Shown in pieces: positions 20,895-24,922 of a stretch of 64,000 nucleotides of DNA. The notes under the pieces were generated by a model. It was given only the letters and a program-made list of their open reading frames with translations. It was not told the origin of the DNA and did no database searches. The position numbers and the translations under genes are program-made. This stretch comes from a virus. The stretch is from the UHGV virus genome UHGV-0171999. The stretch is one strand, 5' to 3'. Each line of letters opens with the position of its first letter. The first letter of the stretch is position 1.

Positions 20895-20902
20895 TATTTA
20901 TA
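20895..20902 (-). promoter_or_regulatory. T4 late promoter TATAAATA
   Basis: TATAAATA on the - strand 18 nt upstream of the t start codon, overlapping the gene 38 stop. Confidence 0.6.
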
Positions 20903-21449
20903 CGTAATGCTTGAATAGACGCTTATACCAAGGCTTCTGTTCTTTTTCAGGCCATGCAGGAAATTCACCACCTAAATGTTCATGTTTTTCTAAAAGAGCA
21001 AAGAACCGTTTAAGATTTCGGTGATAGAATTTTTCTTTTTTATTCGCGACAGAAGCTTCAATCATATTATTTAAAACTTGGAACTCTCTATATAATTCTT
21101 CAATTTTTCTATTACGAATTAAAACACATTTATATGTTTCGTCTTCTTTCCAGCCATCATCTGTCCATATATCAAACTCGCCAGGTTTATCGAAAGTTAT
21201 ACCGACCGGGCTTCCTATGTCAGTTATTAAGATTTCTTCTTTATTAAAAGTCCAAGCCCGTTTACCGCGATGGTCTTCTTCATAAATCCAATCCTGAGTG
21301 CGTTCATCAAATACAATTGCGTATCCTTCTTTAGGATCCAAAGGTTTTTTATTTGTTGAATGAGCAGGAAGACCAAGACCTTTAATCGGTTTGTAATTTT
21401 CTTCTTTGTAAAATTCTTTCGTGTCAAAATAATAATGATAGATTTTCAT
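20898..21449 (-). CDS. 38: tail fibre assembly chaperone gp38 (T4-type), 183 aa
   Basis: 183-aa protein lacking the Gly-rich adhesin segments of T2-type gp38; downstream of gene 37. Confidence 0.88.
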   Translation of the reverse strand: MKIYHYYFDTKEFYKEENYKPIKGLGLPAHSTNKKPLDPKEGYAIVFDERTQDWIYEEDHRGKRAWTFNKEEILITDIGSPVGITFDKPGEFDIWTDDGWKEDETYKCVLIRNRKIEELYREFQVLNNMIEASVANKKEKFYHRNLKRFFALLEKHEHLGGEFPAWPEKEQKPWYKRLFKHYV

Positions 21450-21475: not shown

Positions 21476-24400
21476 TTATGCTAAACGAACGATATAGTTA
21501 AAAGCAATGTTTTTAACTGTGTTTTCTGTATTACCTGTACTATTTACAGTAATCGTATGGCCATGAGCAGCAATAGAAAACGTGTGAGTATGTGAACCTA
21601 TAGCCACTGTATGGTTATGTGTACCGATATCAGTATAGTGACTATGTTCTGGAGCGACTGATGTAGTACCTGACCACGTGTGTGAGTGTAAACCATCCTC
21701 GTTCGTCCATGCCGTTGCTGACTGACCGGAATTGGATGCTGCAAATCTACCGGACTGAACGTTAGAGTTGTTACCAAGTGAAGCAGTGTGTGCGTGCCTA
21801 CCGTCAGTACTCGTTGTACCGGATACTGTATGAATATGTGCACCAGCGGTGTTAGTATGTTTACGGCCTAGATCTGTTGTACTAACAGTTTTAGTCCCTA
21901 AATCAGTAGCGCTTGTAGTACCAGACAAAGCAGTAGTGGATGCTGAAGCAATATGGGTATGGGACTTAATACCATCAGCTTCAGCACTCAACACTGTGCG
22001 ACCGCTCGGTTTACCCTTAATAGTCTGCCCTCGCATATCAGGAATAACGCCACTAGGATACGCAGCAGCTAGCTTTGGATATGCAGACTTATCAAAGGTC
22101 TGGCCTTCCATTAAAGCAAATCCATCTGGAATTGAATCTCTCGGCCATGGAATCGGAGCACCGACAGGATAAGGTATCTGAGCATCTGAATACATCTTAT
22201 ACACTTGTCCAAGTATATGGTCCGCAGGTAATTCTTCTACTGGTGATTGAGATGCACCATTAAGACCGATTATCGAAATATTACTAGTGTTATCCGTAGT
22301 ATCATATTCGACTATAAGTTTGTTTGAAAAAGTACCTGAGTATAGATAAATATCGTAGTCGTCACCAGAAGTATTAACTGTTGCTATATTAGTAAATCCG
22401 CTGCTTGTACGACCCCATAAGGTGGCATTAATAGCTTTAGGGCTATTATTACCAGTCCTAAGAACTATTTCAGTAATTGTGGCCTGTTCAGGTGTATTAG
22501 CATTATACCCATTTCCACCGATAATTTTGAAACTTGCAGTAGATGTAGATTGTGGCATTGTTACAGTAGCGAATTTGTACCAGTACTGGCCTACTACTTT
22601 ACTAGCACCAGTCCAAGTGCCAACATTAACTTTGCGGTTTAATGTTGTATTCAGGTTAGAAAAATTGTCAGAACCACCGGTGATATTACCGTCAGTTCCT
22701 AGTTTGACATTTCCAACTTTAAGAGGTTTAGTGATTGATACTAAATTATTGCTTATAACAAGACCATGTCCATTATATTGACTATAAAGCGATAAATCAT
22801 TTCCAGCGCCACCAAGACCAACATACCAAGATCTAGTTCCATCTCTAGAACCCAGTAAATAATTAGCAGAAGATGAAGGAGAATCTAGAGTAAGCACTGC
22901 ATTAGGTGAATTAATAGTTACTGGACATATCATTTTAATAGTTTTAAGACTATTACTTACTTGTAATAATCCTGTACCAGATCCAGAATCTCCTAAATGA
23001 ACATCATGCGACATTTTAACTGTGCCGGTGTTCAGTTCTATTATCAATGGTCTAAGATTACTTATACCGCCCGATTCTCCGGCACCTTTAGGAGTCGGGA
23101 TAATATAAAAATTACTTTCTGAGCGACGGAAAATAGCACCGTATTCAGCATTCCAAATTCTTAATGCATCTGCTGTTCCACCAATTTTTACTTGGCCTGT
23201 AATGGAAGAACCACCTTGGACAAACAAACCGTTAGACATGGTAACATTGCCACCAAAAGAACCTGTACCAGAGGCACTTATATTTCCAAGCCCGACAATA
23301 TGTCCAGTTTCTACAGTACCATTAAATTTAAAATTAATAGGACCTACTGTTTGACCTGACGCAGGATTAGTACGTTGAGCGTAGAAATAATAACCTTGTC
23401 CGTCAGCTACTTCAAAAACTGTTTCACGATTACGATCGCCAGATGCGTTAAATGAATTACCCCACGCTTTAACAGTTACATAGCTTTTATTCTGACCAGC
23501 ACGAGTACCGCCTTCCCAAAGTATTTGTTTAGTACCATCAATACCTGAAGCTGCTTTAAAAATTAGAGAAGCGTTAGTTCCATCACTATTAAAATATAAT
23601 CCATTGTTAAGCTTTAATGTTTGAACAGAAGCGACGGTACCATCAGCACGCAAACTTAATGTATTTGAACCAGTTTTAATATCTAAAATACCCGGCTCAA
23701 CAATTAAACCTTCAGCCATTCCGACAGCCATACGACCCGTGCCACGGAAATAGTGATACATTTTAGAATTGCTGCTATAACCAATATGAGTCTGACCATC
23801 GCCGTTATTATTACCATCAATATCTGTGCGTGCAGTAAACATTGCTTGGTTGTTATTTGGGAAATCCCAAGTAGAACCGGAATCTCGACTATAACCAACC
23901 ATCAATTTTTTAGTACTATTAATACCATTATTCAAAATGGTAGCGGTTGAAATACCATTAGCCATTAGGTCAATAACGCCAGTACGAACCCATTTAAGTC
24001 CAGAAGCATTATCGCCAAGAGCTAAATACCTATCTCCCATTACCCCGGTATTTCCATAATCGCTTGACGGGTATCCTTCAGTCACAGTACCAATGGCCAA
24101 GCTATTGCGGATAATCATTCTACCGTCATTACGAATACCGTATAGTTTAAATAACGGTGTATTACCAGTCCACCAAGAAACTTCATCAGCTAGCCCAGTC
24201 TGAGCTGTACAAATTTCATGGTAAATAGTTCCACCTGATTTAGCGCGAACTTTACGAAGATAGTTTACTCCGTTAGTTTCACCGGTTCCAGGATAAACAT
24301 AGTTGACTAAAGATTGAGAATCATATTGTCCAAAGGCTTTAGAATCATGATTAATTAAATTAACACTAATAGTTGGTGTACTAATAGAAGTTAAAGCAGT

Positions 24401-24922
24401 TAATTTGCGTGCCTGGAAGATACCACCATCAGTAGAAATGAAATGAAATTCTGAATTTTGAGCTCCCGCAGCGGTTCCTTGGCGAACACGCATTGTAATT
24501 ACGCCTTCATTTTCAGACTGCGGTTTTGAATATAAAACGCCACGTTCTGAGCCATTTGTATTTTCAAACCAAAGATGGGCATTTGCAGTATCATTTATTG
24601 CTCTTGTATAAAATGAACCGGATATTGATCTGAATACTGTAGCAGAAACAATATTACTTGCCGTAATAAAGCCACTTGTAGAAAAATTTCCAAAGTTGTT
24701 TATTGGTCCATTGACGCGTAAAGTTCCATCAATAGTTACATTTCCATCAATTTGACCGCCTTTAGCAATACCTAGATCAATGATATTTCCTGAATCATCT
24801 TTAGTAAAAATTGTTCTATCTTTTAAGTTTATAGCCAATTCACCTTCGGCTAATACTGAAGCAGCAGGACGTGCACCTGCGGTTTTGCTTCTTTTAAATT
24901 GTATTTGTTTTAAAGTAGCCAT
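21476..24922 (-). CDS. 37: long tail fibre distal subunit gp37, 1148 aa
   Basis: Conserved N-terminus [21 protein letters not shown]; C-terminal HxH repeats (HTHT, HNHT, HGHT); longer than the 1026 aa I recall for T4. Confidence 0.92.

Follow-up and report, generated by a model that had tools for sequence, protein, structure and literature searches.

A probable recombinant T4-type gene 37 with a needle tip divergent from that of phage T4

The gene of interest, gene 37, lies in a 64,000-nucleotide stretch of viral DNA (UHGV virus genome UHGV-0171999; hereafter, the window). It very probably encodes a Tequatrovirus gp37 of the T4 type that (i) is recombinant, consisting of a shaft like that of T2-type phages and a distal cassette like that of phage BCH953P2, and (ii) would recognize, by way of its needle tip, a receptor or receptor variant unlike that of T4. 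The phage is known from a metagenome scaffold alone (PASO19-1_SAMN09781698_METAG-scaffold_6), and our reading rests on its sequence; at this level, the identity and architecture of the gene, its mosaic structure, the positions of its insertions and deletions, and the divergence of its tip are established.

Gene 37 is an open reading frame on the minus strand with an ATG start codon, encoding 1148 amino acids (aa) and a stop. The protein matches PHROG 1699, 'long tail fiber protein distal subunit' (E=3e-250), three Pfam families (Collar, gp37_trimer and Gp34_trimer), and the T4 needle structure PDB 2xgf (E=2e-78). The open reading frame map and Pfam matches place gp36, gp35 and gp34 upstream, while gene 38 and then holin t (Pfam Phage_holin_T, E=2e-117) follow, such that the locus reproduces the T4 order 34-35-36-37-38-t. 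The protein can be aligned with T4 gp37 from residue 1. An earlier note on this DNA had described the N-terminus as conserved, and the first 180 nt of the gene bear this out: they are 96–100% identical to those of Phaginator, BCH953P2 and F26 (three of the four relatives compared), and 80–97% identical to those of the fourth, CJY920. The gene is genuine and intact, and the Tequatrovirus backbone around it shares ~96% identity with known isolates. The gene, its parts and its downstream neighbour are as follows.

21476..24922, minus strand: gene 37, long tail fibre distal subunit (open reading frame, PHROG 1699, Pfam, PDB 2xgf)
22727..24922, minus strand: shaft, aa 1–732, similar to that of the T2-type phages Phaginator and Sf22
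23213..23392, minus strand: divergent shaft patch, aa 511–570, a poor match to every relative compared
22637..22726, minus strand: conserved linker GNITGGS..NLN, aa 733–762 (30 aa), with a recombination breakpoint at its 5' edge
22199..22636, minus strand: extra module, aa 763–908 (146 aa), predicted to be all beta, without counterpart in T4, F26 or SP18
21965..22177, minus strand: collar domain D10, first part, aa 916–986 (Pfam PF07484 Collar, E=5e-11)
21788..21964, minus strand: needle stem, descending strand, aa 987–1045, with three HxH motifs and the 9-aa insertion TALSGTTSA (21908–21934)
21707..21787, minus strand: needle tip subdomain, aa 1046–1072 (27 aa), the predicted receptor-contacting surface
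21530..21706, minus strand: needle stem, ascending strand, aa 1073–1131, with five HxH motifs and the 9-aa insertion PEHSHYTDI (21626–21652)
21479..21529, minus strand: collar domain D10, closing strand, aa 1132–1148, identical to T4 residues 1010–1026 at 17 of 17 positions
20898..21449, minus strand: gene 38, T4-type tail fibre assembly chaperone, 183 aa (identity to T4 gp38, PHROG 105)

T4 gp37 (NP_049863; needle PDB 2XGF) resembles the protein in gene order, N-terminus, collar domain D10 and the plan of its HxH needle. The two differ in length, and here both figures in the earlier note are correct: 1148 aa in the window, and 1026 aa in the T4 protein derived from NC_000866. Alignment to T4 gp37, a check that the note itself had proposed, resolves the excess of 122 aa into four kinds of difference: (i) a single block of 146 aa between the linker and the collar domain, (ii) 18 aa in the needle stem, as two insertions of 9 aa each, (iii) a lone additional residue, and (iv) the absence from this protein of 43 aa, in segments that lie at T4 residues 662–727. 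T4 lacks both the 146-aa module and the two stem insertions, and carries seven HxH motifs rather than eight; conversely, its pyramid-like domain is 43 aa longer. The roughly 120 extra residues that had been reported are real and no annotation artefact, but they are not a single inserted or duplicated segment (+146, +9, +9, +1, −43). An internal duplication was rejected as their origin, a BLASTP search of the protein against itself returning the identity match only. The gene is longer than that of T4 because it has the module and one further 9-residue step per stem strand, an excess partly offset by the smaller pyramid-like domain.

The shaft is 90% identical in amino acid sequence to that of Phaginator gp37 and, in windows of 90 nt, 82–100% identical in nucleotide sequence. 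The one exception is the divergent patch (gene nt 1531–1710), where identity to Phaginator and F26 falls to 33–62%, against 83–100% on both sides. Two regions have structural counterparts: aa ~440–641, within the shaft, resemble the C-terminal domain of gp34 (matches to PDB 5nxf/4uxe), and aa 675–751, mostly in the shaft and running on into the linker, resemble the pyramid domain of T7 gp17 (PDB 4a0t; BLASTP over aa 676–751, 39% identity, E=1e-12). The latter similarity includes a common end motif, TDGNI(T/Q)G: the linker motif aligns to T4 residues 786–803 and to 'TDGNIQG' of T7 gp17.

Comparison with named phages revealed that gene 37 changes its affinity at this linker. At gene nt ~2192–2200, informative sites cease to follow Phaginator and follow BCH953P2 instead. 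Upstream (nt 1 to ~2195) the gene is similar to T2-type phages (Phaginator, Sf22); downstream, and on through genes 38 and t, it is 93.6% identical to Tequatrovirus BCH953P2 over 2739 nt. BLASTN similarity to BCH953P2, TH58, CJY920 and SP18 has one shared starting point, gene nt 2188. From the linker to the end of the protein, BCH953P2/P4 and TH58 are close (module 67–77% aa identity, stem 97–100%, tip 85–89%), whereas their shafts are shorter and unrelated (29–31% identity over aa 1–732), giving total gp37 lengths of 1013 and 1023 aa. In Phaginator, Sf22 and UFV13, all of the T2 type, the situation is reversed: linker and a diverged module are shared along with the shaft, but the module is followed by a T2-type C-terminus devoid of HxH motifs, and then by a 263-aa gp38 adhesin. 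The plan of shaft, linker, module, collar and HxH needle is that of TH54, AV117, moha, TH57, vB_EQ1, ESCO10 and CJY920, long T4-type relatives among which gp37 measures 1206 aa (TH54), ~1159 aa (AV117) and 1078 aa (CJY920). These observations are consistent with a natural recombinant, in which a T2-type-phage shaft (aa 1–732) would have been joined at the GNITGGS..NLN linker to a BCH953P2-like cassette; the cassette would comprise the linker, the 146-aa beta-rich module, the collar, the eight-HxH needle and gene 38.

[quoted passage not shown] Identity to T4 differs sharply between subdomains. Collar domain D10 is strongly conserved (87–100%; its first part is 87% identical to T4 residues 811–881), and the C-terminal 17 aa are invariant across all T4-type sequences compared. 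The stem is 60–68% identical, and the tip 11%. The needle carries eight HxH motifs (at residues 988, 1029, 1043, 1079, 1093, 1102, 1111 and 1120), among them the HSHT, HNHT, HTHT and HGHT noted earlier (1079, 1102, 1111 and 1120, respectively). Their spacing parallels that of the seven in T4, plus one 9-residue step, and the eighth motif derives from the PEHSHYTDI insertion. Eight-HxH needles are also found in BCH953P2, TH58 and SP18; TH54 likewise has eight such motifs, and CJY920 six. The T4 needle holds seven irons (PMC6957217). By homology to 2xgf and analogy with that work, the protein in the window would form a trimer, folded with the help of gp38 and gp57A, in which triplets of HxH motifs hold metal ions along the needle axis at eight sites; the needle is probably longer than that of T4.

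Along its whole length, the product of gene 38 is 93.4% identical to T4 gp38, and it is 95.6% identical to gp38 of BCH953P2/P4; it matches PHROG 105, 'tail fiber assembly' (E=8e-43), and falls into one 90%-identity cluster with T4 TFA_BPT4. The earlier assignment of this 183-aa protein to the chaperone type, as opposed to the T2 adhesin type, is therefore upheld. Open reading frames of 181 or 183 aa likewise follow gene 37 in BCH953P2, TH58, CJY920 and TH54 (the four loci read), and AV117 has a chaperone-type gp38 (PMC10844046). Under this assignment gp38 would serve only as a folding chaperone, and the C-terminal needle of gp37 would contact the receptor.

The region of the needle that would make this contact is strongly divergent from T4. 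The determinants of T4 for LPS and OmpC have been mapped experimentally to the needle tip, residues 932–959 (PMC6957217). Only 3 of these 28 residues are identical in the window and, of the nine critical non-histidine residues (I933, W936, N937, G938, G940, G942, G943, S947 and Y949), N937 is the only one kept. By contrast, the tip is 89% identical to that of BCH953P2, from whose tip loop it differs by the three substitutions S1057A, S1068T and A1071T, and 85% identical to those of TH58 and SP18; the tips of TH54 and CJY920 are only 19–26% identical. The earlier note had held that the shaft sets receptor specificity, a premise that the mapped T4 determinants do not support. Its prediction of a host range unlike that of T4 remains plausible, via the tip and not for the reason given: with 11% identity and one of nine critical residues retained, a different host range is likely. 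The extra length being genuine, and the receptor-binding residues far from identical to those of T4, neither of the observations that the note had named as fatal to its proposal was made. Since the sequence of the tip loop is unrelated to that of T4, the phage is expected to use another receptor than T4, or another variant of it. By analogy with T4, the 27-residue loop would have as its target a porin of the outer membrane, the LPS core, or both. Experiments have shown that AV117 and AV118, each with a long T4-type gp37, depend on OmpC (PMC10844046). No receptor is documented for the tips of BCH953P2/P4, TH58 and SP18 in the literature searched on BCH953 and Gaprivervirus, or in the supplements of a 2026 receptor-screen preprint.

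Far from being new, the 146-aa block is a module that many phages share, including some with quite different tips. It is 66–79% identical in CJY920, BCH953P2/P4, TH54, AV117, moha, TH58 and others, ~55% identical in the gp37s of T2 and K3, and 52% identical in its diverged Phaginator copy. T4-type gp37s that carry it range from 1013 to 1206 aa, and each has a T4-type tip. The core of the module extends to the fibres of ST64B, SJ46, vB_YpM_5, wV8, SSU5, RB49 and Acinetobacter phages; in P1-, Mu-, Felix O1- and SSU5-like fibres, which have other tips and Tfa-type assembly proteins, it is 39–56% identical. An AF2 model, for which a shallow alignment of 15 sequences served as input, is all beta and of low confidence (pLDDT 55.5, pTM 0.60), and its Foldseek matches in the PDB are weak; the best is a WceF tailspike-like protein (TM ~0.5, rmsd 7–10 Å). 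A profile search of PDB sequences gave no match to the module even at E<=10, no Pfam domain was found in aa 763–908, and matches in PHROGs were to tail fibre or unknown-function families only. Two protein searches of large databases yielded no more than 3 and 12 proteins, all short and partial, which served as rows of the alignment. The idea that the module, coming after the T7-like pyramid, is akin to the tip domain of T7 gp17 was rejected at the sequence level (hhalign against the gp17 C-terminus, probability 0.1%).

Could the 1148-aa gene be an assembly chimera of two T4-like phages in one metagenome, the assembler having switched inside the linker from a Phaginator-like T2-type fibre to a BCH953P2-like T4-type fibre, such that this exact gene exists in no real phage? 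The sequence does come from a metagenome scaffold, the change of parent type is sharp and coincides with a motif that all gp37s share, and 1148 aa is about the length expected of such a fusion; moreover, in the phage collection no isolate spans the junction at an identity above 86%. Nevertheless, we consider a chimera very unlikely. An identical protein is encoded on 3–4 contigs (20–200 kb) that stem from two assembly sources independent of each other, ENA and Logan; the open reading frame is in frame and intact; and around the breakpoint a great many sites distinguish the two nearest references, with no long shared k-mer evident. The same kind of joint is also seen in isolates: F26, JM10 and JM17 combine a Phaginator-like shaft with a T4-type tip, while BCH953P2, TH58 and CJY920 each carry the same cassette on different shafts from the same junction nucleotide. 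The origin of the shaft raises a separate question, namely whether the fibre is of the T2/T6 type, with gp38 as the adhesin and gp37 as its mere presenter; the N-terminal two thirds of gp37 are, after all, closest to T2-type gp37s (Phaginator, Sf22, UFV13, K3). This reading has next to no chance of being correct and is already refuted by gp38 and the gp37 C-terminus: the downstream gene encodes 183 aa with 93% identity to the T4 chaperone, the T2/T6-type adhesin of ~260 aa, marked by glycine-rich motifs and hypervariable segments (263 aa in Phaginator), is not what is encoded there, and the C-terminal 242 aa of gp37 are a collar and HxH needle homologous to 2xgf, unalignable with the C-terminal part of Phaginator gp37, which has no HxH motif at all.

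A natural recombinant of the T4 type being preferred, there is still the question of whether the module itself determines host range—for instance as a lateral knob binding a glycan or protein—in which case the length difference would alter specificity. Its core does sit in the variable, host-range-determining C-terminal fibre parts of phages with invertible segments (SJ46, beside Pin; the Mu-like vB_YpM_5, beside Hin), its predicted fold is all beta, and its internal aa ~811–870 are more divergent than their flanks. Against this, the module lies upstream of T2/K3-type fibre ends that work with a gp38 adhesin, of T4-type needles with differing tips, and of P1, Mu, Felix O1 and SSU5 fibre ends; the presence of the same module before unrelated distal tips is more readily expected of a structural adaptor than of an element that sets specificity. 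Furthermore, all mapped T4 determinants are in the tip (PMC6957217), the SP18 tip is 85% identical although SP18 has no module, and fold comparison linked the module to no lectin or other binding domain with confidence. We regard a determinant role for the module as improbable; it probably acts as a structural spacer or adaptor. Equally doubtful is the broader proposal that the module-bearing, eight-HxH fibres (the gene in the window, BCH953P2/P4 and TH58, with SP18 as a member without the module) form a distinct receptor-specificity class, directed neither at OmpC nor at T4-type LPS glucose, in which the module would provide a second, lateral site and make the fibre bivalent.

Gene 37 in the window is a new allele of a well-known and highly mosaic gene. 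It leaves the understanding of such fibres unchanged, since the mosaicism of gp37, its variable number of histidine motifs and the determination of specificity by the tip were already established. It contributes one more allele to the known T4-type fibre tips, and a clear case of cassette exchange at the GNITGG linker, where a shaft otherwise known from T2-adhesin fibres is combined with a T4-type needle and chaperone. Both are of use in genome-based prediction of receptor and host range, and in the choice of junctions for fibre engineering.

Gene 37 stands in a late-gene block that retains the T4 order (gp34, gp35, gp36, gp37, a 183-aa ORF, holin t), in a phage whose backbone shares ~96% identity with isolates of Tequatrovirus. 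The 64 kb window yielded no tRNA genes.

Genes of the long tail fibre block
Gene 37: window 21476..24922, minus strand; ATG start, 1148 aa
gp34: 1289 aa
gp35: 371 aa
gp36: 221 aa; Pfam Phage_T4_gp36
gp38: window 20898-21449; 183 aa, with 93.4% full-length identity to T4 gp38
Holin t: after the 183-aa ORF; Pfam Phage_holin_T, E=2e-117

The 1148-aa protein belongs to the PHROGs family 'long tail fiber protein distal subunit' (E=3e-250); T4 gp37 has 1026 aa (NC_000866). gp38 shares a 90%-identity cluster with the T4 assembly protein TFA_BPT4, and the motifs HSHT, HNHT, HTHT and HGHT lie at gp37 residues 1079, 1102, 1111 and 1120. Every element of what the earlier note had observed (a gp37 longer than T4's, its histidine-rich array, and a 183-aa gp38 of the T4 chaperone type) is therefore correct. 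gp38 has no match in the local Pfam copy, while the source contig's precomputed annotation gives PF28596 (Caudo_TAP_N); this discrepancy reflects differing library versions and has no biological meaning.

The gene is a mosaic. In a sliding-window comparison, nt 1-~2250 are 82-100% identical to Phaginator (a T2-type phage with a gp38 adhesin), bar one divergent patch, and identity falls to ~50% thereafter. BCH953P2, a Tequatrovirus isolate with a T4-type tip, shows the reverse: unrelated across most of the shaft, it reaches 73-99% past nt ~2250, except at nt 2521-2610 (61%). Informative sites flip sharply from Phaginator-like to BCH953P2-like at nt ~2192-2200, at the edge of a conserved linker. 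The BCH953P2-like stretch (93.6% over 2739 nt) runs on through gene 38 and t, and gp38 also has its best match in BCH953P2/P4 (95.6%), which argues that linker, module (described below), collar, needle and chaperone behave as one cassette.

Junction segment
Linker: window 22637-22726; gene nt 2197-2286; aa 733-762

BLASTN alignments to BCH953P2, TH58, CJY920 and SP18 all start at nt 2188 (window 22735), immediately upstream of the linker, whose edge looks like a recurrent cassette boundary. Its counterpart in T4 gp37 is at T4 786-803, and in T7 gp17 the motif ('TDGNIQG') closes the pyramid domain (39% identity over 76 aa, E=1e-12). Such exchanges happen in cultured phages too: in the isolates F26, JM10 and JM17, a Phaginator-like shaft is followed by a T4-type tip and chaperone, and the module is missing. 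In the 1990s, Tétart, Krisch and coworkers reportedly described recombination at motifs conserved in genes 37 and 38. Within the otherwise Phaginator/F26-like shaft, aa 511-570 (window 23213-23392, ~180 nt) show 33-62% nt identity to Phaginator and F26, and form a small separate mosaic piece.

A junction at a conserved segment could also be produced by chimeric assembly, and no isolate in the phage collection spans it at high identity. Megablast found no record in that collection spanning 80% of gene 37, and the phage genome collection of August 2025 lacks the gene at >99% identity. Clustering of ~15 billion proteins at 90% leaves the exact protein as a singleton. Against a chimera, the exact protein occurs on 3-4 contigs in ENA and Logan, from independent assemblies, the reading frame is intact, and such junctions have many natural precedents; a chimera is therefore judged unlikely. 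The longest contig is a metagenome scaffold, and the phage appears to be uncultured.

Scaffold matching the window
ENA ERZ28629209; PASO19-1_SAMN09781698_METAG-scaffold_6; 167,058 nt

Alignment to T4 gp37 (BLASTP and MAFFT pairwise) pairs aa 1-761 with T4 1-802 (55% identity) and aa 907-1148 with T4 802-1026 (60%); the stretch between aa 761 and 907 has no T4 counterpart.

Length differences from T4 gp37
146-aa insertion (the module): aa 763-908, after T4 residue 803
9-aa needle insertion TALSGTTSA: aa 997-1005
9-aa needle insertion PEHSHYTDI: aa 1091-1099
Single-residue insertion: one
T4 residues missing here: 43 aa, chiefly three blocks of 11, 15 and 14 aa at T4 662-727

These sum to +165 - 43 = +122. 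The earlier note's placement of the extra length in the central or distal shaft was thus roughly right, but the difference is composite and two insertions lie in the needle stem; the duplication it had considered as a source finds no support, self-comparison revealing no internal duplication. Other T4-type-tip phages have gp37s of 1009 (SP18), 1013 (BCH953P2), 1023 (TH58 and F26), 1078 (CJY920), ~1159-1185 (AV117, moha, vB_EQ1, ESCO10, TH57) and 1206 aa (TH54), so 1148 aa falls within the known range. A gp38 ORF of 181 or 183 aa was confirmed in all seven such phages whose loci were read.

The module is not present in T4, F26 or SP18 gp37. It recurs at 66-79% identity in CJY920, BCH953P2/P4, TH54, NIC06P2, AV117, moha, TH57, GRNsp7, vB_EQ1, ESCO10, TH58 and F2, and at ~55% in T2 and K3 gp37. 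Its core (~100 residues) is found in fibres of Salmonella phage ST64B, Felixounavirus wV8, SSU5, RB49 and Acinetobacter T4-like phages, and in those of P1-like SJ46 (beside the Pin invertase) and Mu-like Yersinia phage vB_YpM_5 (beside Hin). The latter two homologues sit in invertible host-range segments, where they open the invertase-adjacent fibre genes (SJ46 locus, 1279-2604; vB_YpM_5 locus, 1486-2361). The module has no Pfam family and, by profile search, no PDB relative; its AF2 model, from a shallow alignment, is entirely beta at low confidence (pLDDT 55.5), with weak Foldseek matches. The module stands upstream of many tips that are unrelated to one another, and SP18 has a close relative of the present tip but no module; we therefore infer a portable domain with a structural role, as spacer or adaptor, and not a specificity element. 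Its middle (aa ~811-870, window ~22400-22500) is 59-74% identical in nt to BCH953P2 and CJY920, against 88-92% in the flanks, with mixed informative sites, suggesting either more rapid divergence or a third source of sequence.

In T4, the collar (D10) comprises residues 811-881 and 1010-1026, the stem (D11) 882-931 and 960-1009, and the tip 932-959; the needle holds seven irons (PMC6957217).

Corresponding domains here
Collar: aa 916-986 and 1132-1148; 87% and 100% identical to T4
Stem: aa 987-1045 and 1073-1131; 60% and 68% identical
Tip: aa 1046-1072; 3/28 residues identical

Each strand of the stem carries one of the 9-aa insertions; being matched, they preserve the strand register. The ascending-strand insertion brings an HxH motif, giving eight in the needle (988, 1029, 1043, 1079, 1093, 1102, 1111, 1120) against T4's seven (883, 915, 929, 966, 980, 989, 998). 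The needle would thus be one step longer than T4's, with a predicted eighth metal site. The same eight-motif needle is present in BCH953P2, TH58 and SP18; among other relatives, TH54 has eight motifs and CJY920 six, and the number is therefore a known variable.

The earlier note had the architecture right, but had assigned specificity to the shaft. That assignment does not hold: the T4 residues found critical by alanine and combinatorial scanning (I933, W936, N937, G938, G940, G942, G943, S947, Y949, plus histidines) map to the needle tip (PMC6957217). Among the nine non-histidine residues, the alignment shows N937 alone to be kept. The closest tips are those of BCH953P2/P4, which differ by three substitutions (89% identity across the tip subdomain), followed by TH58 and SP18 (both 85%); a literature search found no published receptor for these phages. 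AV117 and AV118, which have other long T4-type gp37s, are OmpC-dependent by experiment (PMC10844046), and AV117 also carries the module. A porin and/or LPS receptor is therefore a reasonable expectation. Gene 37, a well-known fibre gene of highly mosaic make-up, is represented here by a new allele, and a host range different from that of T4, as the earlier note proposed, is plausible, but owing to the divergent tip and not to the shaft.
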